Of a stretch of DNA of 64,000 nt, positions 7,491 to 31,045 are shown in pieces; position 1 is the first letter of the stretch, and every line of letters begins with the position of its first letter. The stretch comes from an uncultured Candidatus Saccharibacteria bacterium (GTDB taxonomy: Bacteria; Patescibacteriota; Minisyncoccia; Phycocordibacterales; Zambryskibacteraceae). The position numbers and the translations under genes are program-made. The DNA lies in assembly GCA_964357635.1 (NCBI GenBank), contig CAYHLZ010000001.1, positions 198,674-262,673 on the forward strand, read 5' to 3'. The notes under the pieces were generated by a model. That model had not been told where the DNA came from. It did no database searches and saw only the letters and a list, made by a program, of their open reading frames with translations.

Positions 7491-10400
7491 TTACCTCCAC
7501 ATTGTAGATTTTGCCGTCTGATGACAGGATAATCTCTTTTGAGTCCAACATTTTACCATTTACCGCTATAGACTTAACTCCGCGACTCAATCCTAAAGGA
7601 TTTTTGACAGTTATTTTATAGCTGGTTGATTTGAAGAAATAAGAAACCTTAAACTCTTTCCAGTCTTTGGGGATGCATGGATTTATAATTAATTTTGACT
7701 TAGAGATTTTAATACCCAAAATAAACTCTAAAGTTGTTCGGTACATTAGCCCCGCAGCACCGGTGTACCATGTCCAACCGCCTCGCCCTTCATATGACGG
7801 TTTTGAATAAATATCTGATGCAACTACATATGGTTCAACTCTATATTGAGTCACCCCTTCTGGACTTCTTGAACGATTAATCGGATTTATAAGGTCAATG
7901 ATGTTTTTTGCCTTGTCCCCTTCTCCTAAGGTAGCAAAAGCCTGTGCCACCCATAGAGCCGCATGGTTATATTGAGAACCATTTTCTCTCACTCCAGGCG
8001 GGTAATCTCCTGTATAACCCACACGCATAGATGACTTTGCTATAGGGGGCGCCAATAACTTCAAAAGTTTTTTGTCTGGCATCAGATATTTTTCTACTGC
8101 GTCCATGGCCTCTCTTGCCCTTTCTTCTGTGCCAGCCCTACTTAAAACTGCCCACGACTGAGTAATTGAGTCAATTTTTATTTCTTCGTTTAAGTGGGAC
8201 CCTAGTGGCGCGCCATCATCAAAGTAAGCTCTTCTGTACCAAGACCCGTCCCAGCCGTGAATCTCAAGCGCATTTTTAATTGATTCGGCAATATTTCTAT
8301 ATTTATCAAGATGTTCAACATCATTTAATTTGGTACAAACTTCAGAAAATCTAGTCAAAATTGAATACAAGAAAAACCCAGACCAAACACTCTCTCCTTT
8401 ACCATTAATTCCAACTTCATTAAATCCGTCGTTCCAGTCCCCTTTACCAATAAGAGGTAGTCCGTGTTCGCCGAAGAATAACGACTTATCAATAGCACGC
8501 GTACAGTGCTCAAATAGCGAATACTTACCTTTTGTTATTTCTGGAACACCCACCCACTCTTTTTTGTTTTTAAAGTCTAGAGCTGGTCCTTCTAGAAACG
8601 GCATTCGCTCGTCAAAAATACTGAAATCACCGGTGATTTCAACATAAGAACATACTATATGTGGTAACCACAACTGATGATCTGACATAACAGAACGCAT
8701 GCCGAAATTATTATGTTCATGCCACCAAGTCTGCACATCACCTTCCACAAATTGATGCTCGGCAGCATCAAGAATCACTTTTCGCACTAAATCAGGATTA
8801 GAATAGATAAATGCGGTTATATCTTGCAGTTGGTCTCTAAAGCCAAAGGCGCCAGATGGCTGTGAATATCCGGCTTTTGTAAATATTCTTGATGATAGGA
8901 TTTGATAAAGAATCCAGTCATTAAACATGATGTCTAGAGACTCGTCGGGTGTAGAGATTGTAATGCTTCTAGAAATTTGGTCCCAATATCGTTCAACTTG
9001 GGCTAGCGCCTCTGTTATCTTTGGTAACTTACGATAAGTGGTTACTAGTTTGCGTATTTCCTCAATGTTTTCCCCTTCTCCGAGAAGAATAAGAACGCTC
9101 TTTTCTTCGCCAGACTTAAGATTGACTACTGTCTGAAGGCTCACGCTGTGGTCAGGTTCATATTTAATCTCATTAGAAAGTTTTTCTTTCTTTAGCGCCT
9201 CTGGAGATTTCACACTACCGCCTCGCCCAAAAAATTCTTCTCTACTTGTTGAGATAGCGTAATTCCCCTTGTTCATGTCAAGAAAAACTAAATTCCCTTG
9301 AAAATGGTTTCTGACAATGTTTTGTGTTATGACTGCCTTTGTCTTGTTGTCTGTACTCGTTATGAGAGAGCGTTTAGTTTGTTCGTAATTTACACCTAGT
9401 ACCAACTCAAAAAATCCTGTCACAGAAAGATTTCTTGTTTCAGTTCCAGTATTTTTTATTGTGAGTTTAAAAATCTTTATTTTCTCCGTTGTGGGAACAA
9501 ACATAAGCAGTTTGTGCTCCAGAGAACCGCGCTTATGCTCAAAAGTAGAGTACCCTCGCCCATGTTTTACAGTGTATGAGCGATCTTCTCCCAAGGGATA
9601 AGGAGTTGGAGACCACAGTTCTCCAGTTTTTTCGTCTCTAATGTAGAGAATCTCACCAGAAGCATCTAATAAACTATCCGCGGCCCAACTTGTCAGCCTG
9701 TTGTCGTAACTGTCAACAGACCAAGTATGGCTCGATCCCCCCTCGGACACCATAAATCCAAACTGAGGGTTAGAAATAACATTAACCCAAGAAGCGGGAG
9801 TTTTAAGGTCTTGAGAGAGATGCATTACATATTCTTTTTTAGTCTCATCAAACCCACCTAAACCATTGTAAAAAGATAAAGAATTTGATGGCTTTAGTGC
9901 CACTTCTTTTTCTGGCAACTCTTTACTTGATTTGAAAATGTTTGGCAATGGTTTGATATTCGGCTTTCTATTTCTTGTTTTTATTTGATATTCAAGGTTA
10001 CCTTCCTCACTATCAAAAATTGCCGAGGCGTTAAAGAGTATAGAGTGTCTGTCTTCTACTGACATGAAATTTGTTTTCAAGTGAAAAACCTTACCGTTAC
10101 TGTGATTATTTTCAACTAGTTTGTTGTAGCGAATGATGAAATCAATCTCGTCATGTAGTGTTTTTATATACCCACCAGGATGTTCGTTGTAGATAACTAT
10201 GTCAATATTTAGACCTTTGTATGTTAAATATCGGTAGCAGAGTAAAACGTTTTTAATAAAATTAATATCTTCTATATCCTTAATTTTAACTACTATGATG
10301 GGCGTATCTCCAGAAATTCCATATTTCCACAGCGAATGAATCATTGGGAAAGCTGGGCTAACGTTGGTAGGCTTATCGCGCAGGTAACCACCAGCCAAGA

Positions 10401-13400
10401 TTCGAGAAGCCAGTTCTTGAAAAATCAGTGCCTGTTCAGAAGAAATACCAAATCTTTTAAGAGCATGTACGCTTTCTTGATTTGCTTTATCAATAATACT
10501 TACTGGGTTTTTTAAATTGCGATACTTTTTAATTACGCTGGTAAGATCCTCTAGGTTTGTTGAATAAGCATTAATAAAAATTATTTTTGTAGACTCATTT
10601 GGTTTTAGGTTTATTTTTTTCTGTAGGCTGAAGATGGAGTCTAGGGTGTAGTCCTTATCGTGACTCACACTTTCTTCGTGGTTAAAAATGTATGGAGAAA
10701 CAGTTGAACCTCTTCTTCCTAAAAACGATTCGCGAGAAGTATTGTATTTTATAACCTCATTTTTAACCTTATTATCAGCCATAAAATGAGCAAAATAGAA
10801 CTTTTTTGTTTTGTCAGGTAAATTATTTCTAGTGAAAACTAAAGATTTGTGTTCTTTGAGGAATTCTGATTTGATGAAAAGTCTTTGATATGCGGGATGT
10901 CCGATATCTTCTCCTTGTGAAGCCAGCACTACCTCTCCGTAACTAGAAACTTCAAAAGACTGTTGAAACTCATTTTGATTTGTTATTGTTAATTCTCTAA
11001 TCTCAACATTATCTTCTGGTGGTACAGAGATTTTAAGGATAGTGTCAATACCTTTGTTTGTTTGGTAAAACTCTGCTTTGTTCTCAGAAAAGATAACTTT
11101 ATAATTCTTCCCCAGAACTTTGGTTGGATGAAAAGTTGGTGACCACAAGCTGTTATCGTCAAGGTTACGAACATAAAGAAATGTGCCGGAACCCTCAAGA
11201 ACCGCGTCTTCTTTAAACCGTGTAAGTAGCAGATTATTGTACTTACTGTAACCACATCCAGTATTGCTTATTGACACTGAATAATTTCCATTAGAAAGAA
11301 AGGCAAACCTCGGCGTTTGGGTTCTCAGTGGAATATATTGTTTTACTAAGTGTCCAGAGTCAGTCGTATTTGAATAATCAATTAACAATCTTGATGTAAT
11401 TTTTGTCGGTTTGACTGGAGTTATGGCCCTAACCTTTTCTTCAAGCAATACTTCAACCGACGCTACTAGCGGATCTTCGTTAAAGAGTTTTCTTATTCGT
11501 TTGTCGTTTAGGGCGTTATTAAGATTACTCATAATAAATCCTTGGTGGTGTGCATAGTAAACCTTAGTAGCTACCCCACCCCTCTTTCTTTCCTTACTGG
11601 GCGTGTAATCAATAGCATCATAAAAACCGTAGCTACTGACCCCGCCTTGAAACATAAGTTTCTCTAAATTTTTTATTGAATTCTTAGGTTCAAATAAAAG
11701 TGACAGTACTGTTGTATATGGTGCTACCACTAGATAGTCGCCCAGACTTCTTTTAAGCCCGATATTTGGAACACCAAATGTTTGATACTCGTAATTCTTG
11801 TTTGCATTTAAGAGGTTATAAGCAGACTCGCCCATCCCCCAAGGGATGCCATATTTTTTAGCGTAACTAATATGAGCTTTTACGGCGGCCCTAGCATTTT
11901 TCCCCAAAAGACTTTCGTTGGTAACATCTAGGAAAATTAAAGAAGTTACATGTTCAAACAGTGATCCGCCCCACGAATAAAGAACCGGATTACTTCCAGA
12001 TTTAACAAACTTTCTGTTCAAGTGGAACCAGTGCTTCTTGGGTGCTTGATTTTTTAGTACCGCAATAAAACTTATGATATTGGTTTCTGAAGCAAGGAAA
12101 TCATAATAAGAACTGTCAATCTTATTAAATGTTGCATTGTAACCTATGTGGAAGAGTCCTCTTTCTTTGTTATATAGAAATCTAAAATCTGTTTCTTCAA
12201 AGATTTTATCGCACTGAACCACTAGTTTGTTGTAACTGTCAAAAAGTTTTGATGCGTTTTGTTCAGAAATCTCTACAATTTCAAGGATTCCCAAAAACCA
12301 AGTACGCACACTTTCTTTGTCTGTTTCTTCCAGAGAATAGCTTTCAATTTCAACTTCAATATCTAAATCCCGCACTGCCAAACTTAGTCTGGATTCTTTT
12401 AAGTCTAGTAGTGTGGGACACTGATTGAGTAAATGGAGAAGCTTCTCATATTTAATAGAAAAGTTTTTATAGCGTTTTAATTTATGAATAGCCGGAAAAT
12501 CGGAAACAATCTTAGAAAACGAAAATAAGTCTCTTGTTTCTTTCCTATATAGACTAATCAGGTTCTCAAGATTCTGAATCCAATAGTAAATATCCTGCAT
12601 GTTTTCTTTGCTATCTACGGCAACCATTTCGGTAATCAGCTTTTTTAACTCATGACTAGAATCTGATAATGAGAATAAAATTTCTTCAAATCCGGAGAGG
12701 GTTAGTTCAATATTGTGTTGCTTAAGACTATTTAAGGCTTTGCTGGAACTATTAATGATTTTGTTTAATTGTTCAACTTTTTCATTGTCATGTTTTTTTG
12801 TCTTGTCTCGCCTTATATTCTCTATAACAACGCTTGATTCTTTTGCAATAGAGACAAGAATATCGCTTAATCCTTGAACAACATTCTCTCCGATAGTCGG
12901 CTTTTTTAGAATATCTAAAATTCCCTGCTTCAAAGTAATAATTGACGCTAAAAAGTTGGCGCTATCAACACTGGAAACATATTGAGGGATAAGGGGTTTT
13001 AATAGTTTAATGTCATACCAGTTATAAAAATGACCTTGATAACGCTCAAGTTTGTTCAAGCTGTTGAATGTGTTGGTAAGTCTAGTTTTCAACTCGCTAA
13101 TTCCTATGTAACCAAAATCGTAAGCAGAAAGTAGAGAGAGAAGACCCATACCAATATTGGTTGGGGAGGTGGTGTTGTTTGAAGCTATAAGTGTTTTTTC
13201 TTCTTGAAAATGATCTGGTATTAACCAGTTATTTTCTGCGTTTGTAAATTCTAAGAAGTAACGGGAGCTTTTACATGCGATATGACGAAGAAGTTCCCTT
13301 TCCTTGGGCATAAAACTAATTGTGTCGGGTCTAGGACGACCCAGCCCATAGGCAATAAGAGGAGAGAGAATCCAAAGTACGCTCCAAATATATATGGGAA

Positions 13401-16260
13401 ATGCAGACGCATTAATGTTAATAAAAATTGAAATAAGCAATAATGACCCGGCTTGCGTAAACCACATAGTTGAATAAATCTCAAGTAAGGTACCTTTCAG
13501 TTTTTTTGCCACTTCCCCAGAACTTTGCCATCTAAGCATGTGCTTTCTGGTCAAATATTTATGGATAAAAGTGCTTACAATGGCACTAATGGCAACTCCA
13601 GCGTTATAAAAAAGAAACACACCACTTACCAGCACCTGCACCACAGCAAATACTGATTCGTTGATAAACGAACTAATTTTATTTTTCAAAGTGGAACTTC
13701 TTTCCCATTTAAGCAGTCCAATACAAACAGAAAATATAAATGGAGAACTCAAGATTATGATTATATAAACACTCCCCCAATACATGTTTGGACTAGATAA
13801 GCCCCATGACAGTAAGAGAAAAGCTAGTGAAACTATCGGAATAGAGCTTCTTCTTAGGTTATCGAAAATTTTCCACCTTGAAACAAAAGAAAATTCATTT
13901 TTTATTAAAGTGCCGTTACCGAGCCGGACTCTTGGAAAAAGCCAGTCAATAATTTGCCAATCGCCACGTGTCCACCGATGTAGACGTGAGACATATTCAT
14001 GATATTGAGAAGGAAAATCATCAGATAATTGGATGTCTGTAGCTAGTCCTGCTCGAGCATACAATCCCTCTAAGAGGTCATGACTAAGAACCGTATTGTC
14101 AGGAATCTTCCCTGCCATCGTTTTTTCAAAAATGTCTATATCATAGATACCCTTACCGAAAAATATTCCACTTTTAAACAAATCTTGATACACATCAGCC
14201 ACCACACTAGAATACGAGTCTATGCCAGAGGCGGAGGAAAAAAATTTAGAAAATAATGATTTGTTAGATGTTTTTAGTGACGTGGATACGCGAGGCTGGA
14301 TTATGCCATAACCACCACGTACAACATTTGTTTTCTCATCAAGGATAGCTCTATTGAGAGGATGTGCGATGCACCCAATGAGCTGACTTGCCGACTCTTT
14401 GGGCATTCGCGTGTCTTCATCTAGAGTTATTACATACTTAATGTTTCTAGGTAATTGAGAGAATTTATTGTTATCAATTATGTATGTGGTGTTTTGAGAC
14501 CCACGAATTAGCTGGTTAAACTCTCTTAATTTGCCTCTCTTTCTTTCCCAACCCATAAAGACGTTTTCTTTTGGGTTCCACAGGCGTTTCCTGTAAAATA
14601 GAAAAAACTTTCTTTCTCCGTTAGAGTATTTTTTATTTAGTTTATTAATCTCATCAGATACATAGATGGTTAGCCCTCTATCTTTCGGCATACTTTCCTC
14701 TAGTGCATCGGTAAAGTCCATCAATAATCCGAAAAAGATATTTTTGTCCTTATTACTTAGGTAATTTACTTCAAGTCGCCTTAATAGTTCGTTAATAGAA
14801 CTTATGTTTCTAAACATCCCCGACGTAACCACAAAGGTTCTAAATTCATCAGGTACTCCATTTTTAAAATCAAACTTAGGTAATGATTTTATCGGCAAAA
14901 AACTTACGATTAAAGAATTTAATAAGTTGGTACCCACTTCACTACTCAAAATAAAGATGAGGACAGCTGTTAGAGCCAAATACAGTCCGCTGGTATATTG
15001 AGCAACATAAAAGGAGACAAGTGCTGATATGCTAAGACAAACCAAAGAGATGCTAGTAAAATAAAATAAACTGGGATTATTGAGCAGTAAACGCCCATAT
15101 TTTTCAAAAAAAGTAGGTTTATAGCTAAACTTTTTTTCAAGTTCATCTCTGCCTTGCCCAATAAGATAGTGGCCGATATGTGCTTTTATAGAACCGTCAT
15201 CTTCAATCTGCCCACTTTCTGTTTTTTTACTGTGAGTAAGTTTAAGAGCATGTTTGGCAATTTCTGCTTCGTGTATACCAGTTACGTCAGCAACCCGAAC
15301 AACCGCATCTTTGTATAGGTTCTTGGTGCGATCATCAAGTGCCGTATAAACTCCAGCGGGATCATTGTGAAATATTTTATCAACCACGTTTACGTTACCC
15401 ACAAAGTCGCCCCACTGCACTTGGTTTAACCATCGCAAGCTCTCAAAAATATTTGATATCAAAACTCTTCTCTTATCTCGCTCATCACCTTCAATCTTGG
15501 CTAAATCCTTTATATCAATCCCCTGCTTTAATAGGTTTGACTTCAACCATTTGGTAACAGGGCGCGCTACGGGTTCGTAATGGGACAGTCTCTGCAGAAG
15601 ATAGAAGCCGAAATTTACAGGGATAATGTTGTATTTTGAAGTAAGTTCGTGAATAATCTCGGAGAATTGAGAGATGCGTTTTTGTTTAGTTTTTTTTATT
15701 ATTTGTTTAAACCAGAACTCTGCTTCATTAAACTCTATGGAAGAAAGAAGAATTCGTTCTATTAGATATTGAATGTTCTCCACCAGAATTATCTTTAAAA
15801 TAGTGGGAGTGGCATAGAGCTCTCGGAGAGTTAGTGGGGTGTGTTTCTGATAGGAGTTTATGAACTTCTCCATTACTTGTTTATCAATTTCGTTCTTGTT
15901 TGCCTTCAGTAATTCAGAAAAAATGAAGTAGGTTCTGGGAACAAAGTTTTGTCCACTCTTAGAAATCTGTGGTAATTTCAGAAATTCTTTTTTTACAATT
16001 CCATTTTCAATGTCAGAAATCGCATTTTCTATAATATAAAAATTATCAACCAACTCTGCCTCTTGAGTCAGGTAACTAGAACTGGTAATACTTTTTATAA
16101 AATTATTGTAGAGTTTGTAGGTACTGCGAACCTTTTTTTGTAAGTTATTAAAAAATGATTCAGCGGGTTTCGGTTTGGAAAAAAGAATGCCTCTTTTACT
16201 TAAATCTGAAGCAAGTTTATCAATTTTCTTAAGATTAACTGCTTCTAATAAATCGCTCAT
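7477..16260 (-). CDS. Giant membrane glycosyltransferase/glycoside phosphorylase, cyclic beta-1,2-glucan synthetase (NdvB/Cgs)-like, GT84 plus GH94
   Basis: At 2927 aa it has an N-terminal region with multiple TM helices flanking a GT domain carrying the ITLDEDTRMP DxD motif, then a large C-terminal GH94-like (cellobiose-phosphorylase-like) beta-sandwich plus (alpha/alpha)6 region. One uninterrupted ORF. Confidence 0.7.
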   Translation of the reverse strand: MSDLLEAVNLKKIDKLASDLSKRGILFSKPKPAESFFNNLQKKVRSTYKLYNNFIKSITSSSYLTQEAELVDNFYIIENAISDIENGIVKKEFLKLPQISKSGQNFVPRTYFIFSELLKANKNEIDKQVMEKFINSYQKHTPLTLRELYATPTILKIILVENIQYLIERILLSSIEFNEAEFWFKQIIKKTKQKRISQFSEIIHELTSKYNIIPVNFGFYLLQRLSHYEPVARPVTKWLKSNLLKQGIDIKDLAKIEGDERDKRRVLISNIFESLRWLNQVQWGDFVGNVNVVDKIFHNDPAGVYTALDDRTKNLYKDAVVRVADVTGIHEAEIAKHALKLTHSKKTESGQIEDDGSIKAHIGHYLIGQGRDELEKKFSYKPTFFEKYGRLLLNNPSLFYFTSISLVCLSISALVSFYVAQYTSGLYLALTAVLIFILSSEVGTNLLNSLIVSFLPIKSLPKFDFKNGVPDEFRTFVVTSGMFRNISSINELLRRLEVNYLSNKDKNIFFGLLMDFTDALEESMPKDRGLTIYVSDEINKLNKKYSNGERKFFLFYRKRLWNPKENVFMGWERKRGKLREFNQLIRGSQNTTYIIDNNKFSQLPRNIKYVITLDEDTRMPKESASQLIGCIAHPLNRAILDEKTNVVRGGYGIIQPRVSTSLKTSNKSLFSKFFSSASGIDSYSSVVADVYQDLFKSGIFFGKGIYDIDIFEKTMAGKIPDNTVLSHDLLEGLYARAGLATDIQLSDDFPSQYHEYVSRLHRWTRGDWQIIDWLFPRVRLGNGTLIKNEFSFVSRWKIFDNLRRSSIPIVSLAFLLLSWGLSSPNMYWGSVYIIIILSSPFIFSVCIGLLKWERSSTLKNKISSFINESVFAVVQVLVSGVFLFYNAGVAISAIVSTFIHKYLTRKHMLRWQSSGEVAKKLKGTLLEIYSTMWFTQAGSLLLISIFININASAFPIYIWSVLWILSPLIAYGLGRPRPDTISFMPKERELLRHIACKSSRYFLEFTNAENNWLIPDHFQEEKTLIASNNTTSPTNIGMGLLSLLSAYDFGYIGISELKTRLTNTFNSLNKLERYQGHFYNWYDIKLLKPLIPQYVSSVDSANFLASIITLKQGILDILKKPTIGENVVQGLSDILVSIAKESSVVIENIRRDKTKKHDNEKVEQLNKIINSSSKALNSLKQHNIELTLSGFEEILFSLSDSSHELKKLITEMVAVDSKENMQDIYYWIQNLENLISLYRKETRDLFSFSKIVSDFPAIHKLKRYKNFSIKYEKLLHLLNQCPTLLDLKESRLSLAVRDLDIEVEIESYSLEETDKESVRTWFLGILEIVEISEQNASKLFDSYNKLVVQCDKIFEETDFRFLYNKERGLFHIGYNATFNKIDSSYYDFLASETNIISFIAVLKNQAPKKHWFHLNRKFVKSGSNPVLYSWGGSLFEHVTSLIFLDVTNESLLGKNARAAVKAHISYAKKYGIPWGMGESAYNLLNANKNYEYQTFGVPNIGLKRSLGDYLVVAPYTTVLSLLFEPKNSIKNLEKLMFQGGVSSYGFYDAIDYTPSKERKRGGVATKVYYAHHQGFIMSNLNNALNDKRIRKLFNEDPLVASVEVLLEEKVRAITPVKPTKITSRLLIDYSNTTDSGHLVKQYIPLRTQTPRFAFLSNGNYSVSISNTGCGYSKYNNLLLTRFKEDAVLEGSGTFLYVRNLDDNSLWSPTFHPTKVLGKNYKVIFSENKAEFYQTNKGIDTILKISVPPEDNVEIRELTITNQNEFQQSFEVSSYGEVVLASQGEDIGHPAYQRLFIKSEFLKEHKSLVFTRNNLPDKTKKFYFAHFMADNKVKNEVIKYNTSRESFLGRRGSTVSPYIFNHEESVSHDKDYTLDSIFSLQKKINLKPNESTKIIFINAYSTNLEDLTSVIKKYRNLKNPVSIIDKANQESVHALKRFGISSEQALIFQELASRILAGGYLRDKPTNVSPAFPMIHSLWKYGISGDTPIIVVKIKDIEDINFIKNVLLCYRYLTYKGLNIDIVIYNEHPGGYIKTLHDEIDFIIRYNKLVENNHSNGKVFHLKTNFMSVEDRHSILFNASAIFDSEEGNLEYQIKTRNRKPNIKPLPNIFKSSKELPEKEVALKPSNSLSFYNGLGGFDETKKEYVMHLSQDLKTPASWVNVISNPQFGFMVSEGGSSHTWSVDSYDNRLTSWAADSLLDASGEILYIRDEKTGELWSPTPYPLGEDRSYTVKHGRGYSTFEHKRGSLEHKLLMFVPTTEKIKIFKLTIKNTGTETRNLSVTGFFELVLGVNYEQTKRSLITSTDNKTKAVITQNIVRNHFQGNLVFLDMNKGNYAISTSREEFFGRGGSVKSPEALKKEKLSNEIKYEPDHSVSLQTVVNLKSGEEKSVLILLGEGENIEEIRKLVTTYRKLPKITEALAQVERYWDQISRSITISTPDESLDIMFNDWILYQILSSRIFTKAGYSQPSGAFGFRDQLQDITAFIYSNPDLVRKVILDAAEHQFVEGDVQTWWHEHNNFGMRSVMSDHQLWLPHIVCSYVEITGDFSIFDERMPFLEGPALDFKNKKEWVGVPEITKGKYSLFEHCTRAIDKSLFFGEHGLPLIGKGDWNDGFNEVGINGKGESVWSGFFLYSILTRFSEVCTKLNDVEHLDKYRNIAESIKNALEIHGWDGSWYRRAYFDDGAPLGSHLNEEIKIDSITQSWAVLSRAGTEERAREAMDAVEKYLMPDKKLLKLLAPPIAKSSMRVGYTGDYPPGVRENGSQYNHAALWVAQAFATLGEGDKAKNIIDLINPINRSRSPEGVTQYRVEPYVVASDIYSKPSYEGRGGWTWYTGAAGLMYRTTLEFILGIKISKSKLIINPCIPKDWKEFKVSYFFKSTSYKITVKNPLGLSRGVKSIAVNGKMLDSKEIILSSDGKIYNVEVIMGD

Positions 16261-16829: not shown

Positions 16830-17777
16830 TTATACCTTGAGATATTTGCGTATAGCAAGAGCGCTAGAAAGTGCGCCGATAAATATTCCTGATGCCATAA
16901 TGATAAAAGCGATTTCCAAGAAATGACGGAGGTAATAAGAGAAAATATTGAAACCGATAAAGAAACTCTCGGTTGTCCCTCCAAGCCAATATGTGAGTGG
17001 TAAAAGTAAAATTAGTGTTGAGATGCCGGCCACCACTCCGTAGATAACACCGAGCACTACAAAAGGTCCTTGAATATAGGTCATTGAGGCACCTACTAAG
17101 CGCATCACGCTTATTTCATCTCGAGCCAAGTAGATTGTCAGACGGATAGTGTTGAAAGCAATCAAGATAGAGATAGTGGCGAGAAAAATAGTTAGGGCAA
17201 AGCCTAATTTGTCGGCAGAAGAGATAACTCTAGTGAGTTTATCTATGGCGGCTTTGTTTTGGAAATAATTCACACGGTCAATGATATTGACCGTATCTGG
17301 GGAAAGAGCATTACCGCCTTCTAGAAACTCTGCAACAGAAGCATACTGGGCTGGGTCTCTTGCCTTAATATTGAGAACTGCACCAAGAGGATTTTCTCCG
17401 AGTTCATCAAGGGCAGAGAGGATGGACTGGTCGGATGCGTGTCTTTCTTTGAAAAGAGTCAAGGCTTCTTCACGAGACACGTAGGTGACTAGAGATACTT
17501 CTGGCAGAGATTCAATCGTATGTTTAAGCTCCAAAATAGCCTCTTCCTCGGCGCTCGTTACAAAGGTAACGTTAATATCAATCTTATTTTTTAGCTCAAC
17601 GAGAGTGGTATTTAGAATAGCTCCAGAGAAAGAGATAAGTCCTATAACTAAAAGAGTTACCATCATCACCAAGACAGAGGCAAGAGAAACAGTTGAGTCT
17701 CTCCAGAAATTAAAAAACCCCGTGCGGATAATCCTTTTAACTTTGGTCCAAAACATTTTCTTGTTGGTTTCCGTCAT
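16830..17777 (-). CDS. ftsX: Cell-division ABC transporter permease FtsX
   Basis: 4-TM FtsX topology with a large extracytoplasmic loop after TM1. It lies immediately downstream of ftsE. Confidence 0.75.
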   Translation of the reverse strand: MTETNKKMFWTKVKRIIRTGFFNFWRDSTVSLASVLVMMVTLLVIGLISFSGAILNTTLVELKNKIDINVTFVTSAEEEAILELKHTIESLPEVSLVTYVSREEALTLFKERHASDQSILSALDELGENPLGAVLNIKARDPAQYASVAEFLEGGNALSPDTVNIIDRVNYFQNKAAIDKLTRVISSADKLGFALTIFLATISILIAFNTIRLTIYLARDEISVMRLVGASMTYIQGPFVVLGVIYGVVAGISTLILLLPLTYWLGGTTESFFIGFNIFSYYLRHFLEIAFIIMASGIFIGALSSALAIRKYLKV

Positions 17778-17779
17778 GT

Positions 17780-18460
17780 TTATACAAAATATTTACCACT
17801 CTTGTCGTCGCGGACAACCCTGCCGTGCTCTATGGCGACAACGCGACGTTTGAGCAAATCAATTATACCCTTATTGTGCGTTGCCAATATCACAGTGGTG
17901 CCGAGATCATTAATCTTCTTAAGTATCTGGACGATGTCGTAAGTGTTGGCAGGATCCAGATTTCCAGTGGGTTCGTCGGCAATGATAATGTCGGGTTCGT
18001 TAACAAGAGCTCGGGCAATGGCAACTCTCTGTTTTTCTCCACCAGAGAGTTCGTGTGGAAAGTTCCAAACCTTGGGTGTTAGGTCAACAAGTTCTAGGAC
18101 GTGTGGTACATCGGACTCTATCTCCTCGTCTGTCCTCCCTGCCGCTTCCATGGTGAAGGCAATATTTTCGTAAACAGTTTTGTTTGGCAGAAGGCGAAAG
18201 TCTTGGAAAACCATACCCACTTTCCTACGGAAGATGTCCATTTCCTTTTTAGTTAGAGAGTGGATGTTGGCTGACTCGTAGTAAACAGCCCCTTCGGTCG
18301 GCTTCTCTTCTGCTAGAAAAAGCTTTAAGAGCGTGGTTTTCCCCGCACCAGAGGGGCCCACAATAGAGACAAATTCTTTGGGCTCTATAGAAAGCGTCAC
18401 CTCTTCAAGAGCTACAGAACTGTCTGGATATACTTTAGAAACACGGTCAAAGACTATCAT
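17780..18460 (-). CDS. ftsE: Cell-division ABC transporter ATP-binding protein FtsE (start placed at [11 protein letters not shown]; the ORF extends to 18496)
   Basis: Walker [13 protein letters not shown] signature [15 protein letters not shown], Walker [13 protein letters not shown], 226-238 aa. Operon with ftsX. Confidence 0.85.
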
Positions 18461-18519
18461 TTGCTTAATTCTACCATGTGTGGATTCTTGCAACAAGAAA
18501 TATGCTATATTAAGAGTTA

Positions 18520-20213: not shown

Positions 20214-23200
20214 TTAACCCCCGAAAAGATTTTTCAGGAAGTTTATAAGTCCTCCTCCACTCTCGCTTTCCCCTACTGCTGCAGGCAAACGATCAAGATC
20301 AATATCTTCTTCGCCTTCCTCGTCAACATTTTCCTCTTCGTTGTTGGTGGTTGGAGTATTAGAGTTTGATTCTGGCAGAGCAGACGCTAGAGGTTCGTGC
20401 GGAACATTCGGATTCTTTGACCACTCAATAAGTTCAGGCAGTTGTATTGCTAGGTCTGGACACTCGAGCATGTTGATCCATCGCAGTGTCGTCTGATAGA
20501 CAAGACCTGTTGGACCGTTGAGATTCCACGGGGTGAGAACTTCGCCGGCAAACTTCTCTTGGAATGCTCTAAGCACTTCAAGAGTTTGCGGACCATAGAC
20601 ACCGGTAATCGGGAGGTTGGAATGCATCCACTTGTTCAGGAACGTTTGAAGAAGTTTGACTTGCTCCACGTCATTGTTGGCAGAACCGAAGCGGATGAAT
20701 CTGTCCATGTAGAGTAAACAGCTCTCGCGAAATGTGGAAGCTCCCAAAACCTGGCCGTTACCACTTCTGAAGTCTCTACTGGTACTTGATGGATTAGATG
20801 GCTCGTCAGCAAGTGTTGGAGGGTTAGGATCAGACTCGTCGTCGTCATTTGGGTCGTAAGAAGACGAATTGGAAGCATCACTGTCAGTATGACACCCAGG
20901 ATCCTCTGAATCGGTTGCTTGGTCTCCATCGTTGTCATCGTCGTCGGAACACTGAGGAAGTTCTTGTTGTGATGGACAATCCTCTGTGCTGCTTTGATTA
21001 CCTTCAACATACGGGCACACGTCAACTACAACGGGGGCATTGAATCCGACACAATAGTAAGTCTGTCCAGCGACCACAGGGTCAATTAAGTCATAGTTGT
21101 CGTAATTCAGAACATCGTCACTGCAGTAGAATTCGGCTGAAACATCCTGGTCTTGGGGTTCTGTGGTATCTCCGGAAAACGCAATATAATTGGAGTCAAA
21201 TTGTTCGCGTAGCCAGACCAGAGAACCTGCTGGAACAGAGACGCTCGTGGTAAATGGAGTCCAGGCTTCGCCACCTGCTTCTACGCTGTCTCCGGGGTTT
21301 GAAGTGCCGTTAGGAGCCCACTCAAAGGTCCATTCTTCAATATGACAATCTTGGGTTTCGTCTTCAAGATCATCTGCTAGGAAGTTAGGAACAGTGGTAG
21401 AAGTGATATCGGCACTACCCTCTCCCCAGTTCGGAAGGTCATCTTCAGAATCGCAGACAATTTTGGAGGCGTATATAGTTGCAGTGTCTGGATCTGGGTA
21501 ATTCGGAACACATTCGTTTTCTACCTCATGGTAACCTTCTTCGCATTCTTCTGGAGGTGGAGGCACACAGGCATTTTCATTAAGTGAGAGTTTGTAGAGA
21601 AGTCCTGCTGGGTTACTTGCTGGGTCGGCACTTTGCTCGGCTGACTCCCAGTTAGTTACCGTGATTTCTAGCGTGTTTAATCCGCTGATAAGAAGCGAGC
21701 TTACATCGTAAGAATCTTGAGTAGCGAGTTGGAAATTATTCTGGTCAAATACAACGGGCAGAGAATTTCCATTTAATTTGACACTGTAGTTGTTATCAGC
21801 TGCGACATCAAGAGTTCCACCAGTCGGTGTTCCAACGATGGCAAATGTCTTGGTAAATACTTTTGTCAGGTCGCCGTCATTCGTCGGGGCTTCAACCGGA
21901 TCGGTTGCCCAGATCCAAGTGGCGTCGGGAATAGATGCAGTCCAAGCTGGATGAATAAAGGTGAGTTCGGATGCGTATCCATCTCCGTCACTAGTAGTAT
22001 CGTCAGAAACTAAAGTCTGAGAACTTACTACATCTTCACAAGGGGTTTGTTTCGGCACACAGACCAGACTTGCGTTATCAAGGTATCCACCAAAGCTGGT
22101 GTCGGTGCCGTTGTCAGAGAATTCAATTTTAGTCGTTGGATTAGTGGCTGTAAATGTGCGGCTGATGCTTTCCCAAACTGTATTGCCATTTAGGGTTCCG
22201 TCTGTCGCAACATTTGCGCCAAGTACCGAGCCATCAACTTTTACCTGCAAACTATTGTCTGCCAAATTGCGTCCAGGTCTTGGAGAATAATTGAAGTTAA
22301 GAGCGTATTCTTCCCCTACGATAGTAGGAATGTTCTGCCAAATTGTAACTGGATGGTCTCCGTCTAGTTCAGCATGTTGTGCTCCTGATGCTGGTGATCC
22401 AGCAACATTATTCTGAATCTCAAGACCAAGAGTTCCACCCTCTTGTGGGGTTACCCAAGCGACGAACCATTCAAGAAGAGGGTTTGAATCAGGAATGATG
22501 CTCCATGTCCCGTTACCTAAAACTGGCGTCTCAAAACCTCCGTTTTCTAGAAGGTTAAGTTCTGGCACACAAGCCTGAGGTGGCTCAACGTCATCATTGG
22601 TGACTGTGCATGTTTTCTCATCACCTAGCGCCATATTGCCAGAACAGTCTTCAGAAAATGTCGGAACACCGTAGCCCGGAGCAATTGACTCCGCAACACC
22701 ATAGGGACCTACACCAAGAATTACAAGAGTACCCTCTTCAGAGCCGGGAAATTGTCCTGCAGGGTTTGCGTTAACACCGTTTACAATAAGTGAAAAATCG
22801 TCGGCTTCTGCCGTACCGTTGTCATCATTAACCACGTGTTTGATAACTGTAAGAGTCGGGAGTTTTGAATTGGTTATGGTGCAGGTGTATGGTCCATTGC
22901 CATTATCTACAGGAATGTTGTTGCAATGATTAGCATTCTCTCCTGGTCGATCACTTGAGTAAGTGGCTGTGTAGCCGGATTCTGAATCCTCTACAACATC
23001 GTAAACGCCGTTAGCAAGTCCTGTAATTAGATTTGTACCGTCCGCCTCAAACTGATATCCGATTGGAGGAACTTCTCCTTGCTTATCAACAGTGAAACTG
23101 AAATCGTCTGCGCCTGCTTCCTCGTCACCGACAAAGACTTTCTTTACAATCAGTTGGATCGGCTCGTTTGTGAAGGTGCAAGTAATATCTTCATAGAGCG

Positions 23201-24059
23201 AAACGTTAACAGTGGCGGTACCTGTCTCTAGATCAATCTCGGCAGTTTCATCATCACAGTAAATACCTGTTAAGACGTAGCCATCTTTTTGGCTTTCCGT
23301 AACGGTGTAAATCCCTTCAACTAGATTGCCCAGCTTATGTTTTTCACCACCACCCAGAGAGAAGTTATCAGAGCCTTCTACGTTTGAAGAAAAGTCAAAC
23401 TTATCCTTAGTTGGTGAAGTTACGACCTTTCTTACTGCAATGTTGCCGAGCCTATCACCCTTAACGAGGACCCCATCTACACGGAAATATTCACTGGAAT
23501 CACTGGAAGATTGTCTAAAGCGTAGTATAAACGAGGAGTTATTTAGAGAGTCAGACAAATCAACAGACTGCATCGTACTCCAGCTTTCGTGCACATTGTT
23601 GTTTCCGTCGTCCAATTCGTGGGTTGCAAGCGATGTCCAGCCGGACGCTGAAGTGCAACTACCTGAAGCCCTGTATTCTACCGTGCCACTTTCGCTATCT
23701 TCGGCATCTGCGTCACCTCGCCAGAAATAATGTAAAAAGAGATTGGTATGTCCTGAAGTATCTATCGTTCTACAAATCCAGTCATCTTCGCCGATCTTTG
23801 CAAAAAGATCACCCTGTGGACTTACCTGATCTTCACCGCTTATAGCACCGGGTTGAGGAATGGTAGAAGAATCGTTGTCTGTCCCTTCTTCATTCCACCC
23901 ACTGATATCATCTGGATCAGAACCTGCAGTAAAACCATCACTAAAAACAGTTGCTGCGGAAACTGTTTTTGGAACCAAGAAGGCTAAGGAAACAAAAAGC
24001 CCGAACACGAGAAAAGTGTCTAGAATAAAACTTATTTTCTTCATATTTTTTGGTATCAA
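20214..24059 (-). CDS. Very large secreted cell-surface protein with repeated Ig-like/prealbumin-like (DUF11/SdrD-B-like) modules, a peptidoglycan-binding domain and an acidic C-terminal tail
   Basis: Signal peptide; recurrent T-C-T-(F/V/I)-TN modules (ITCTFTNEP, TCTITNSK, TCTVTNDD); PG_binding_1-like segment (LLQTFLNKWMHSNLPITGVYGPQTLEVLRAFQ); Asp/Glu/Ser-rich stretches. 1281 aa. Confidence 0.6.
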   Translation of the reverse strand: MIPKNMKKISFILDTFLVFGLFVSLAFLVPKTVSAATVFSDGFTAGSDPDDISGWNEEGTDNDSSTIPQPGAISGEDQVSPQGDLFAKIGEDDWICRTIDTSGHTNLFLHYFWRGDADAEDSESGTVEYRASGSCTSASGWTSLATHELDDGNNNVHESWSTMQSVDLSDSLNNSSFILRFRQSSSDSSEYFRVDGVLVKGDRLGNIAVRKVVTSPTKDKFDFSSNVEGSDNFSLGGGEKHKLGNLVEGIYTVTESQKDGYVLTGIYCDDETAEIDLETGTATVNVSLYEDITCTFTNEPIQLIVKKVFVGDEEAGADDFSFTVDKQGEVPPIGYQFEADGTNLITGLANGVYDVVEDSESGYTATYSSDRPGENANHCNNIPVDNGNGPYTCTITNSKLPTLTVIKHVVNDDNGTAEADDFSLIVNGVNANPAGQFPGSEEGTLVILGVGPYGVAESIAPGYGVPTFSEDCSGNMALGDEKTCTVTNDDVEPPQACVPELNLLENGGFETPVLGNGTWSIIPDSNPLLEWFVAWVTPQEGGTLGLEIQNNVAGSPASGAQHAELDGDHPVTIWQNIPTIVGEEYALNFNYSPRPGRNLADNSLQVKVDGSVLGANVATDGTLNGNTVWESISRTFTATNPTTKIEFSDNGTDTSFGGYLDNASLVCVPKQTPCEDVVSSQTLVSDDTTSDGDGYASELTFIHPAWTASIPDATWIWATDPVEAPTNDGDLTKVFTKTFAIVGTPTGGTLDVAADNNYSVKLNGNSLPVVFDQNNFQLATQDSYDVSSLLISGLNTLEITVTNWESAEQSADPASNPAGLLYKLSLNENACVPPPPEECEEGYHEVENECVPNYPDPDTATIYASKIVCDSEDDLPNWGEGSADITSTTVPNFLADDLEDETQDCHIEEWTFEWAPNGTSNPGDSVEAGGEAWTPFTTSVSVPAGSLVWLREQFDSNYIAFSGDTTEPQDQDVSAEFYCSDDVLNYDNYDLIDPVVAGQTYYCVGFNAPVVVDVCPYVEGNQSSTEDCPSQQELPQCSDDDDNDGDQATDSEDPGCHTDSDASNSSSYDPNDDDESDPNPPTLADEPSNPSSTSRDFRSGNGQVLGASTFRESCLLYMDRFIRFGSANNDVEQVKLLQTFLNKWMHSNLPITGVYGPQTLEVLRAFQEKFAGEVLTPWNLNGPTGLVYQTTLRWINMLECPDLAIQLPELIEWSKNPNVPHEPLASALPESNSNTPTTNNEEENVDEEGEEDIDLDRLPAAVGESESGGGLINFLKNLFGG

Positions 24060-24213
24060 GCTTATTAATTAAATAGGAATGGGAGCTCTCTAAAAGAGAG
24101 GATACTCCTATATGCCTTTGGGTGTCAAATGAGGATTTGACAATTGACAAGACTGGTTATTTTTTATATGGTCAAGGCGGTTTAGCGCCATTCCGGCGCT
24201 TATGGAGACTGCG

Positions 24214-24867
24214 ATGAAAAATGTGTTCTTTTCAATCGTTCTCTTGTTCGCGTCGGTATCGGCGTTCGCTGGGGGGACAACTTCCTCCGGAGGCACGGTG
24301 TACACCTCAATCTCGAACGAATCGTTTGGTTATGCCGACCTTCGCGGTGGGGACGGTGGGTGCATCGAGACCGAGACAATCATGTATGCGACGAGGTCCG
24401 CCAACCGGATCAACTTTGAGAAATGGATCATCACTACAGAGGTCAAGATCGACTCTATGGTCCGGCGCAACACCTGTACCGGTGTGCTCGAGTTCAGTGC
24501 TTCCGGAATCGGTCCAGTCGAGAGCTTCCAGCACATTGCCAGTACGTCCAAGGACGGAGTGGTAACCGATGCCATGGCGTCGGTCGTGGCAACCGTTCTC
24601 GTTAACGACACTGTGTCCGGCTCACGAGTTCCGGTGAGAGTCAGTCTCATCTGGACCGCCTTCGGAGTAAAGACGCTGCTCAACCACGAAACGAAACACA
24701 TATACCCGGGGGGATACTGGGATCTCTCAGCTCTTCTCCGCGGTAGTATGTACATCGAGTCGTCAGTTGCGGGTTCGCTCTCCGACGGTGTCTACGAGTA
24801 CGCCCAGACCTACGCATCTGCAACTTGGGCGCAAACGAACAACCTGTACATGGAGAACTCTCCGTAA
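24214..24867 (+). CDS. Hypothetical secreted protein encoded on a GC-rich island (start at MKNVFF)
   Basis: Signal peptide MKNVFFSIVLLFASVSAFA. GC is about 55% with GC3-biased codons, against about 40% in the flanks. Followed by an intrinsic terminator. Confidence 0.55.
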   Translation: MKNVFFSIVLLFASVSAFAGGTTSSGGTVYTSISNESFGYADLRGGDGGCIETETIMYATRSANRINFEKWIITTEVKIDSMVRRNTCTGVLEFSASGIGPVESFQHIASTSKDGVVTDAMASVVATVLVNDTVSGSRVPVRVSLIWTAFGVKTLLNHETKHIYPGGYWDLSALLRGSMYIESSVAGSLSDGVYEYAQTYASATWAQTNNLYMENSP

Positions 24868-24891: not shown

Positions 24892-24924
24892 GTGCTCCGG
24901 TGTCTAACATCGGAGCACTTTTTT
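24892..24924 (+). terminator. Intrinsic terminator after the GC-island gene
   Basis: GTGCTCCG-gtgtctaacat-CGGAGCAC hairpin followed by TTTTTT. Confidence 0.7.
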
Positions 24925-26248
24925 AATTAATCATTTTTATCTTGGCACCTATTTTATTAAGCCTACCAACGATATTTTCATACCCACGGTTTATGGCATA
25001 GACATTTCTAAGCGTCGACTTGCCCCGAGCGCCAAGCATCGCGACAAGAAGCATGACAGAAGGTCGGAGCGCTGGTGGACAGACTATCTGTGTCCCCCGA
25101 AGTTTCGTCGGTCCTTCTACAAAAACTCTGTGAGAGTCTGCAAGTTTTATAGAAGCTCCCAAGCGGTTAAGCTCGGTAAAGAAAACTGCCCTGTCTTCCC
25201 ACATCCAGTCGTGTATGAGAGTGCTCCCTGTCGCCTGTGTCGCAATGGGTACAAAAAATGGCAGGTTGTCTGTATTGATACCGGGGTAAGGCAGAGCGTG
25301 AATCTTGTCGTGAAGTGCGGTGAGCTTGGAAGGTTTTATAGTGATGTCCACCAGTTTCGTTTTTCTGTTCTTAGATAAATAAGTTTTTGAGAGTAAGAAC
25401 TTCTGACCCATCTTCTCAAGTTTGAGAAGTTCTACTTTTAAGAAATCTATTGGTGCCCGCTTCACTGTAAGTTTGGAGCGAGTTAAGATGGCAGCGGTGA
25501 CAAAAAACATTGCTTCAATAGGATCCTCGCTGTTGTAGTACTCAATATCTTTTTCTATATTTGGACTGCCTACTATGGTGAGAGTCTTCGTGCCGATGCC
25601 ATCTATTTTTATTCCTAGTTGAGCCAAGAAATAACACACTTCAAGAGTCATGTAGTTCTGCTGGGCGAAGTCAATAACCGTTTTCTGTGACAACACAGCT
25701 GCTCGCAGTATCGCATTAGTCGTGCCGGTATCCGATGCCTCGTACATCACCACTTCTTTGCGTGGAGGTTTGGCACTGGAAATCTGGTAGTGATTTTCTT
25801 TAGTTATAATTTTTAACCCCAAGTCTTCTAGAGCAAAGCGGTGCGCAGCAATGGTTCTCTCCCCCATCTTACAGCCACCGATATGCGGTAGTTTAAAGGA
25901 TTTAAAGCGTCCCGAGAGTGGGCCAATAAGCATTAGGGTAGAACGGATCCTGCCGGCGGCACGGGCGTTGATTTTATTTATTGAAAAGTTTTTAGGTGGA
26001 GAGATGGTGATTGTATGTTTGTCAGTCCATAAGACTTTTATGCCAAGACTTTTAAAAACTTCTATCAGGCGGTTAACTTCCTCTATGCGAGGGATGTTGT
26101 GGAGCGTAGTTTTGCCTCTGTTCACTAAAGCGGCGGCAAAGAGATGTGTTGCGCCGTTTTTAGACGAGTTGGTGGTAATAGTGCCCGAAAGTTTGCGTCC
26201 TCCCTCTATCTCAAAGTTGTCGCCATCTGACTGTTGGTTTTTTGCCAT
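24923..26248 (-). CDS. murA: UDP-N-acetylglucosamine 1-carboxyvinyltransferase
   Basis: EPSP-synthase fold with the MurA-typical N-terminus KLSGTITTNSSKNGATHLFAAALV...; about 440 aa. The start was placed at MAKNQQ to avoid overlapping the upstream gene. Confidence 0.85.
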   Translation of the reverse strand: MAKNQQSDGDNFEIEGGRKLSGTITTNSSKNGATHLFAAALVNRGKTTLHNIPRIEEVNRLIEVFKSLGIKVLWTDKHTITISPPKNFSINKINARAAGRIRSTLMLIGPLSGRFKSFKLPHIGGCKMGERTIAAHRFALEDLGLKIITKENHYQISSAKPPRKEVVMYEASDTGTTNAILRAAVLSQKTVIDFAQQNYMTLEVCYFLAQLGIKIDGIGTKTLTIVGSPNIEKDIEYYNSEDPIEAMFFVTAAILTRSKLTVKRAPIDFLKVELLKLEKMGQKFLLSKTYLSKNRKTKLVDITIKPSKLTALHDKIHALPYPGINTDNLPFFVPIATQATGSTLIHDWMWEDRAVFFTELNRLGASIKLADSHRVFVEGPTKLRGTQIVCPPALRPSVMLLVAMLGARGKSTLRNVYAINRGYENIVGRLNKIGAKIKMIN

Positions 26249-26252
26249 ATTT

Positions 26253-26810
26253 TTATTCAAACCTGACTGGGATCTCAAGCGCATCATCGTGCTCTGGCAG
26301 ACCAGAGGGGTTGTCCTTCTTTAAGATAAGTGTGCCACGTTTGCTATAAACTTCTGGGTTTACAGTAAAGTTTAGTGTCGTCTCAAATGGCACAAAGTCT
26401 TCTGTCATCCAGCCTGCCCCGCCATCGGCGGGGTCACTTTTCGCAGTCGCAATACCTTCAGCGATGATGAGTCCGTCCCAGTCTGTAAGATAAACTGGAA
26501 AACTAGCTTCAAAGAACCAGTATCCTCTCGCCTCTCCCTTGACTACGAGTGGGCTCTTTATAACCTGATTCGGTCTTGGGTTATTAAGCACTATAAGATC
26601 CATCTTTAAAAGTTCATTACCAATATCTTCTGTATAAGTTTTATCGCCGTCTCTACATTGCCTGGGGTAGCTCTCCATCACTGGATTTCCCTTCGCCACA
26701 CATTCTTCAAAACTAAGAGCAAGCTCTGTCTTACGACTATCTAAATGAAACCATGTGCCAAGACCTAAAACAATTAAGGCAAAAATAAAGATAAGGAATG
26801 TTTTTCTCAT
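26253..26810 (-). CDS. Secreted Gmad2 (GerM-associated) Ig-like domain protein
   Basis: Signal peptide plus a C-terminal region resembling the Gmad2 Ig-like domain (FEASFPVYLTDWDGLIIAEGIATA...FVPFETTLNF). Confidence 0.45.
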   Translation of the reverse strand: MRKTFLIFIFALIVLGLGTWFHLDSRKTELALSFEECVAKGNPVMESYPRQCRDGDKTYTEDIGNELLKMDLIVLNNPRPNQVIKSPLVVKGEARGYWFFEASFPVYLTDWDGLIIAEGIATAKSDPADGGAGWMTEDFVPFETTLNFTVNPEVYSKRGTLILKKDNPSGLPEHDDALEIPVRFE

Positions 26811-29888: not shown

Positions 29889-30356
29889 TCAATTATTTCC
29901 GTTCACAATCTCTGCGATTTTTGGATTCCAAAGAATCATGTCCCCCTCTCTTTTACCATCATATTTCCAATCATGTTTTATTGGTACTTTTTTTATAGAA
30001 TCATTGCTTATCGCTAGGTTGTTACCTATATAAAAACCGAGATGTGGATGCCCATCTGTTTCATTTGATGGTTTCCAGACGATAACACTGCCTACAATTG
30101 GTTCGGAAATTTCACTCCAGCCAGACTCCTTCAAATCCCTAACGGTAGAAGAAACCGTGGCGTGAATTTCTTTTATATATTTGCAGATTACTAAAATGGA
30201 TGAAGCATAGAAAGCACATGACAGTCTGCCATTGTCCGTCGCATCAAGTTTCTCTCCATCGGAATTAATATAAAGATTTTGAAACATCTCTGTGCCGACA
30301 CTTTTCTCTATCATAGAAAGATAAGTATCAAACTGGCGAGGAGTTATCTTTGGCAT
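29889..30356 (-). CDS. NlpC/P60-superfamily (papain-like) Cys/His hydrolase, paralog A (AT-rich)
   Basis: Putative catalytic Cys (LSCAFYASSIL) and His (HPHLGFYIGNNLAIS), matching the NlpC/P60 pattern DCSGxV...HVGIYIG. It is a paralog of the next gene. Confidence 0.5.
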   Translation of the reverse strand: MPKITPRQFDTYLSMIEKSVGTEMFQNLYINSDGEKLDATDNGRLSCAFYASSILVICKYIKEIHATVSSTVRDLKESGWSEISEPIVGSVIVWKPSNETDGHPHLGFYIGNNLAISNDSIKKVPIKHDWKYDGKREGDMILWNPKIAEIVNGNN

Positions 30357-30438
30357 GCCAAAAATTCTATCACAAGAGAAAAAGAAAACCCCGCGCCTGC
30401 CAAATGGCTAACGCGGGGCGGAGGTGGGGTCTCGAGGT

Positions 30439-30954
30439 TCAGTGTCTCTGCCGAAGATGCTCATGCCACAGGCAGCGCTTGAGCTCTCGCGTGCCATTGA
30501 AGGTCATGTCGTGCTCAACTGGAACGCCGGTCAAGTAATTCATACTGACAGCGCGCGTGCCGCCAATGGAGAACCCAATGTGCATGTGTGGTTCATTGTC
30601 CTCGGGAAACTGTATTTCTTCCCAGATAAGCACGGCGCCTGGTAAAGGCGGACCCTGAAGATCTTTCCAGCCCGAGCGCTCGAGATCATTCACGGTACTC
30701 TCGACGGTTGGGTGACTGCATCCAATAAGTCGAAATTGAGAAAGGATGCTTGAGAAGTACCATGCGCAGGCATACATCCCGTTGTTGAGCACGTCTTCAC
30801 CGTTGGCAAGGTAGAGAGTCCGGAACTGTCGGCTATCAAGACTGTTCATGATAGCCGCCATAAGCGACCATTGAAGGTTTAGGGACTTGTGTTGACCTTT
30901 TGAGACAAGGAACATGGTGAGTGCCTTGCGAAAGGCGTAGTAAATGTGCCGCAC
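30439..30954 (-). CDS. NlpC/P60-superfamily (papain-like) Cys/His hydrolase, paralog B (GC-rich)
   Basis: Same architecture (YACAWYFSSIL ... HMHIGFSIGGTRAVS), but the coding sequence is about 55% GC. Confidence 0.5.
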   Translation of the reverse strand: MRHIYYAFRKALTMFLVSKGQHKSLNLQWSLMAAIMNSLDSRQFRTLYLANGEDVLNNGMYACAWYFSSILSQFRLIGCSHPTVESTVNDLERSGWKDLQGPPLPGAVLIWEEIQFPEDNEPHMHIGFSIGGTRAVSMNYLTGVPVEHDMTFNGTRELKRCLWHEHLRQRH

Positions 30955-31045
30955 AAGGCACCTCCTTGAGTTATGAAGTCTATAAGCTAATCACCCGACT
31001 AGCTTTCCAACCACAATTGTATCACCTTTATAAAGAAAAGTCAAC

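Follow-up and report, generated by a model that had tools for sequence, protein, structure and literature searches.

A GC-rich NlpC/P60/CHAP-type gene beside its low-GC homologue in a groundwater Patescibacteria genome: a probable ancient xenolog

Two adjacent homologous genes in a Patescibacteria genome, here called A and B, differ by 14.7 points in GC content. Our analysis indicates that B is probably an ancient xenolog, derived from a GC-richer lineage and retained beside the vertically inherited A, with the two genes predicted to form two transcription units. The host is a metagenome-assembled genome (MAG) from groundwater (Hainich well H41, 0.1 µm fraction), and the window, that is, the whole stretch of DNA analyzed, covers 64 kb with a mean GC of 42.3%. 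A preliminary description made from this sequence had offered two explanations for the contrast, a xenolog inserted next to a native homologue or a composition-shifted duplicate. The first is the one favored here; the second is disfavored by the tree, by the length of a loop, and by composition. The relevant features are listed in Table 1.

Table 1. Genes A and B, their predicted expression signals, and nearby cell-envelope genes in the window
Feature	Coordinates	Strand	Description
Gene A	29889-30356	minus	155 aa; 37.6% GC; AAB719_00885; predicted NlpC/P60/CHAP-fold cysteine hydrolase; putative native copy
Gene B	30439-30954	minus	171 aa; 52.3% GC; AAB719_00890; paralog with an extra N-terminal helix; putative xenolog
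Predicted sigma-70-type promoter of B	31016-31044	minus	TTGACT, 17 nt, TACAAT, with TG before the -10; promoter scan, 10/12 matches
Shine-Dalgarno sequence of B	30961-30965	minus	GGAGG; 6 nt upstream of the GTG; conserved in L001
Predicted intrinsic terminator of B	30376-30419	minus	G+C-rich hairpin 30388-30419, U-run 30376-30387
Predicted extended -10 element of A	30364-30372	minus	TGATAGAAT; 7 nt upstream of the ATG; missed by the two-hexamer scan
FtsX and FtsE	16830-18496	minus	Nearby cell-envelope genes
1281-aa SpaA-repeat/PG_binding_1 protein	20214-24059	minus	Nearby cell-envelope gene
MurA	24923-26287	minus	Nearby cell-envelope gene

Both open reading frames (ORFs) were found on the minus strand where the preliminary description had placed them. 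Their homology along the length was borne out by BLASTP (93 bits, 35% identity over 143 residues, E 2e-29), and the motif pairs quoted at that time lie within the alignment. The GC contrast was also real, the earlier figure of about 55% for B being slightly high; the peak 300-nt window of the GC-rich stretch reaches 56% GC, and the 82-bp spacer between A and B has 54.9%. By codon position, GC1/GC2/GC3 is 43/36.5/33% in A and 56/40/61% in B. Among the 53 long ORFs of the window (mean 42.9% GC, sd 4.0; range 33.5-55%; GC3 20-68%), B ranks second at +2.3 sd and A lies at -1.3 sd, and the step between them is the maximum for any pair of adjacent ORFs. Synonymous codon usage, a check that had been proposed earlier, was moderately atypical in B (z 2.8, rank 5 of 53) and typical in A (z -0.7). 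No obvious marker of high expression, such as a ribosomal protein, was seen among the ORFs of the window that were scanned. At the protein level, K/R is 5/11 in B and 13/4 in A, and GARP residues are commoner in B. A shift from Lys to Arg together with more GARP residues is typical of GC-rich proteomes.

Two other ORFs of the window stand out in composition. The one at 24202-24867 (plus strand; 221 aa, 55% GC, GC3 68.5%, codon-usage z 9) is a stronger outlier than B; Pfam and NCBIfam gave no match to it, and public records call it a gene. The giant ORF at 7477-16260 (minus strand; 2927 aa), with a low GC of 36.9%, has the most deviant codon usage of the window (z 17).

An assembly chimera was ruled out, because the identical A/B arrangement had been assembled independently in three replicate metagenomes. 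An overlapping antisense gene was considered as the source of B's high GC and rejected, the ORFs opposite B all being short (<=73 aa). Known RNA families and tRNAs were also looked for as an explanation of the GC-rich stretch, and none was found. The NCBI model of B has 158 aa and is 13 codons short; we place the start at the GTG at 30954. The NCBI start was judged too late because the Shine-Dalgarno (SD) sequence and the N-terminal peptide are conserved (the first 13 residues in L001, a contig of a second lineage that carries the pair).

The composition of B was also compared with that of its family. Over 80 species, the GC of the family gene follows that of the host (gene GC = 0.94 x host GC - 0.01; r 0.88; residual sd 3.7 points), lying on average 3.8 points lower. 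On this regression, A implies a host of 41% GC, and the actual host has 42%. B implies a host of ~57% (GC1 61, GC2 54, GC3 56), and its residual reaches about +3.7 sd; no positive offset in the 80 species exceeds +2.6 points. Held against gene-to-gene variance, as had been suggested, the difference between the two genes stands out both as the largest step between adjacent ORFs and in this residual. A mirror-image case was found in L013 (5400-6600) and L014 (1-1200), where DNA of 55-60% GC surrounds a ~1.2-kb island of 38-42% GC that contains a family member. This suggests that the family has been exchanged repeatedly between Patescibacteria of different GC.

The phylogeny proposed in the preliminary description did not cluster B with A. 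Many family members match B with 113-129 bits and 39-46% identity, rising to 49% with more sequences, and are thus closer to it than A is. In neighbor-joining (NJ) trees of 266 and 373 sequences, built on 144 columns and with B on a long branch, the B clade was monophyletic in 92-93% of the replicates. In 98 of 100 bootstraps it did not group within the A-type clade of 40 sequences, and it was sister to A in none; the trees resolved no sister group for it. The loop from the conserved Trp to the HxH motif has 13 residues in B and 10 in 33 of the 39 A-type sequences; outside the A type, most family members have 11-13. Judged from these sequences, the 10-residue loop is derived in A's clade, and B keeps the ancestral length.

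The search for relatives of B returned no donor lineage, the nearest ones being genes of 29-47% GC. The three nearest outgroups were considered as donors and set aside, as their contigs (37-47% GC) are not donor-like. When 5.8 billion proteins were searched with a profile, no additional members of the B clade appeared and the scores dropped from 309 to 168 bits, and a scan of JGI metagenome contigs for B-type genes returned the L001 contig again and nothing else.

The B-A tandem was found in two other lineages. In the second lineage (L001/L083/L084, from three samples) B' has 50.7% GC and A' 41%, and in the third (L082) B'' has 54.8% and A'' 46%, which places B 9-10 GC points above A in both. 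Identity across the lineages is 59-60% for the B proteins and 73-77% for the A proteins. The window and the L001 lineage also have in common a DUF4870 membrane protein gene upstream and a diacylglycerol kinase gene downstream. An additional ORF of 92-94 aa, with no function assigned, lies between the DUF4870 gene and B' in L001 (959-1243, plus strand) and is absent from the window. In L082 the neighboring desaturase gene is GC-rich as well (56.6%), and B may simply match a GC-richer host there. Because the tandem is common to diverged lineages, B would have been acquired once, before they split, and not recently. The insertion proposed earlier is therefore retained as a xenologous one, and not as a recent event specific to this genome, since the tandem and its GC contrast occur in at least two other diverged lineages.

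Between the lineages, fourfold sites at conserved residues have come near saturation (identity 0.35-0.47 vs. 0.26-0.29 by chance), and B has a GC4 of 0.55-0.65 and a GC3 of ~0.61-0.64 in all three. In a simple relaxation calculation, pure amelioration needs an ancestral GC4 of ~0.73-0.9. This in turn needs a donor of at least 57% GC, so selection may help to maintain the composition of B. A passive, half-completed amelioration is possible, since family genes in Patescibacteria of 57-60% GC reach a GC3 of 0.69-0.79. The first 66 nt of B (30889-30954) are 88% identical to L001 1369-1434, most synonymous sites included, vs. 61% for the rest of the coding sequence; this 5' segment may be under an RNA-level or translation-initiation constraint.

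From these data we infer a direction and a source for the transfer. A would be the copy inherited vertically, and B would come from a different lineage of ~55-60% GC that carried the same family. The integration of B, directly upstream of A, would date to an ancestor shared by a small group of lineages, and B would since have been retained as an extra, faster-evolving copy with the base and amino-acid composition of its donor. The insertion of B exactly beside a homologue is mechanistically unexplained and counts against the xenolog reading. No mobility genes (integrase, transposase) were found among the neighbors of A and B and no tRNA within 15 kb of them, and no pair of direct or inverted repeats brackets the GC-rich segment. 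The flanking direct repeats that the preliminary description had proposed to look for amounted to short chance matches, none of them bracketing B.

Three other explanations were weighed, and with phylogenetics at the NJ level all of them are less likely than a xenologous origin. In the first, A and B split early by duplication, B was lost elsewhere, and its GC is a selected property of the gene. We consider this rather unlikely. It is consistent with the deep, unplaced position of B in the tree and with the tandem arrangement, which is what duplication would produce, as well as with a GC3 that is still near 0.61-0.64 in the three lineages although synonymous sites approach saturation. However, the family is found in more than 130 species, and practically every one of them would have had to lose B: the 80 loci inspected in other species are all single-copy, with no second family copy, and no stand-alone B-type gene appeared among the 5.8 billion proteins. 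GC1, GC2, and the K-to-R shift, moreover, point to a long residence in a GC-rich genome and not to selection at the codon level.

The composition-shifted duplicate of the preliminary description corresponds to a tandem duplication of A at this locus, in an ancestor of these lineages, after which B would have evolved fast and risen in GC, for example because its codon usage or the structure of its mRNA was under selection in connection with its strong promoter and SD sequence. The two genes are adjacent and on the same strand, and B does evolve faster (59% vs. 76% identity over the same splits). B also has strong canonical expression signals, and the conservation of its first 66 nt suggests a constraint at the nucleotide level. 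Nevertheless, a duplicate of A should have A as its nearest relative at any evolutionary rate. B is closer to dozens of family members than to A, which argues against a recent tandem duplicate, and nearly all replicates exclude it from the A-type clade. Its loop has 13 residues and not the derived 10 of the A type, and codon selection leaves the raised GC1 and GC2 unexplained. A duplication of A is thus highly improbable. The notion that the contrast is normal gene-to-gene scatter without historical signal is barely credible: it can call on the heterogeneity of ORF GC and GC3 in the window, on the ORF at 24202-24867, which exceeds B in GC and in codon atypicality, and on the modest codon-usage z of B, but the step from A to B is the largest between adjacent ORFs, the residual of B on the family regression lies beyond the positive offsets of all 80 species, the B orthologues of the other lineages show the offset again, and the tree, as evidence independent of composition, sets B apart from A.

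The search for known domains gave weak matches to both proteins. Pfam CHAP (PF05257) matched A with 16.3 bits (E 0.014) and B with 14.7 bits (E 0.045), below its gathering threshold of 26 bits. NLPC_P60 (PF00877; threshold 23 bits) matched A below threshold (14.3 bits, E 0.041) and did not match B; the best family member reached E 9e-4. Of 49 family members examined, 27 matched CHAP and eight NLPC_P60 (E<=0.01), the CHAP matches all being sub-threshold, and none of the 49 had a match outside the NlpC/P60-CHAP clan (Peptidase_CA). NCBIfam, PHROGs, and PDB sequence searches with A and B returned nothing significant; the best profile matches to PDB sequences were heat-shock factors, which were judged spurious. 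A literature search on Patescibacteria and NlpC found nothing relevant. A has 62 close homologues, and a profile search revealed 803 family clusters at 50% identity; the named members are almost all from Patescibacteria/Parcubacteria MAGs and are annotated as hypothetical.

The AF2 models of A and B have a pLDDT of 93 and 92, respectively, and B has Foldseek matches to NlpC/P60 proteins. The models predict a papain-like alpha+beta fold in which an N-terminal helix packs on an antiparallel sheet; the extra N-terminal helix of B is formed by residues 2-18. The putative catalytic Cys and His, which the preliminary description had seen in both proteins, are C47 and H105 in A and C63 and H125 in B, and they are invariant in the 45-49 family sequences. 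In the model of A, C47 opens the helix 47-57, and H105 is placed at the start of the strand 105-111, C-terminal to the Cys, as in the non-permuted order. D38, G43, S52, H65, T67, W80, G89, S117, and R136 are also invariant in the family. At the expected third catalytic position, ~12 residues past the His, are the invariant S117 and N118, which is conserved in at least 90% of the sequences; this near-invariant Asn is replaced by Met in B and in the B protein of L001. Based on sequence and models, we read A and B as papain-like Cys-His amidohydrolases of an unannotated clade of the NlpC/P60/CHAP superfamily that is widespread in Patescibacteria. The nucleophile would be the Cys at the N-terminus of the helix, activated by the His on the following beta-sheet, and an amide bond would be cleaved.

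No signal peptide, lipobox, transmembrane segment, or cell-wall-binding module was found in A or B, nor a hydrophobic N-terminus or an additional Pfam domain. The maximum 19-residue Kyte-Doolittle mean is 1.21 in A and 0.89 in B, the peak falling on the catalytic helix in each. Both proteins are probably cytoplasmic. Elsewhere in the family, the domain occurs C-terminal to a papain-like Peptidase_C39_2 domain in P0071, P0088, P0132, and P0198, and is fused to an FkbM-type methyltransferase in P0093; these proteins also lack signal peptides.

Over the loci of 80 species, the recurrent neighbors of the family gene are mur genes only. murD is adjacent in 7-8 of the 80 loci, and murA lies at most four genes away in five, the window included. 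FtsX and FtsE are also encoded near A and B (Table 1), and in other bacteria FtsEX regulates NlpC/P60/CHAP hydrolases. The most plausible substrate, by analogy of fold and from the weak signal of the mur neighbors, would be a gamma-glutamyl or other bond of a peptide or precursor derived from peptidoglycan.

The two proteins differ in several ways from the known members of the superfamily. Their identity to NlpC/P60 endopeptidases (MEROPS C40; Bacillus subtilis LytE, Escherichia coli MepS, Thermus thermophilus 4xcm) is ~10-18%. Unlike these, A and B have no signal peptide, lipobox, or cell-wall-binding domain, and they add an N-terminal helix/beta-hairpin module of ~45 residues. The family also adds the invariant D38, H65, T67, W80, and R136, not known from C40, and has Ser/Asn where the third catalytic residue is usually His. 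Compared with CHAP proteins (PF05257; the LysK/LysGH15 endolysins, Gsp amidase), A and B score below the gathering threshold and lack lysin modules; they differ from phage CHAP endolysins in not being phage-borne, with no significant PHROG match.

The signals predicted around the two genes (Table 1) divide them. A comparable TTGACT...TATAAT occurs upstream of B' in L001. The putative terminator of B folds at -28.1 kcal/mol (z -3.15 vs. shuffles) and was missed by the pattern scanner owing to an interior loop; a hairpin and T-run occupy the same position in L001 and L082. Its hairpin accounts for the GC-rich spacer between A and B. Before A, TGnTAGAAT followed by 7 nt and ATG is conserved in L001 and L082, and the order of terminator, extended -10, and ATG is kept in both. 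No SD sequence was found upstream of A. With a -10 element 7 nt before the ATG and no SD sequence, the transcript of A is probably leaderless. Since a predicted terminator and promoter lie between B and A, the genes would not form one operon, and we infer two separate transcription units. Among 83 family genes, a -10-like hexamer precedes the start by 5-10 nt in 29 and an SD-like motif occurs in only nine, counts that rest on predicted start codons; leaderless expression seems to be common in the family. By eye, a sequence resembling the 3' end of a tRNA gene precedes the family gene in about seven of the 80 loci (L009, L019, L030, L041, L046, L052, L074).

A further proposal concerns what the pair does. 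The GC richness of B, instead of being a fading trace of its donor, could be actively maintained in genomes of 42% GC over deeply diverged lineages, through selection on its mRNA or through the needs of an SD-led gene next to a leaderless one. A and B could then be a functionally differentiated two-enzyme module, from a cytoplasmic NlpC/P60-like family not described before, with which Patescibacteria process scavenged cell-wall peptides. We offer this as speculation, and think it unlikely to be correct.

Gene displacement in situ, and the expansion of gene families by transfer and not by duplication, have reportedly been described, in work such as that of Omelchenko et al. (2003) and of Treangen and Rocha (2011). 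As in cases of xenologous acquisition, A and B are homologues that lie side by side, the neighbor is not the nearest relative, and the extra copy is atypical and patchy in distribution. Unlike in displacement in situ, both copies persist through deep divergence. Also, in contrast to typical xenologous acquisitions, the foreign composition of B is evident despite near-saturated synonymous sites, and the two genes do not appear to form one operon.

The expansion of families by transfer is well known, and our results do not overturn the current understanding. If B is a xenolog, the pair would be a case in which a family of a reduced episymbiont genome has grown by acquisition from relatives and not by duplication, with the foreign copy settled beside the native one, where it persists. 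A by-product of the analysis is the family itself, an unannotated branch of a known superfamily. At 50% identity it forms ~800 clusters, which come almost exclusively from Patescibacteria; it lacks a signal peptide and is covered by no Pfam or NCBIfam model. CPR bacteria lack many biosynthetic pathways. If this family processes peptidoglycan peptides inside the cell, it would bear on how these bacteria build or recycle their walls.
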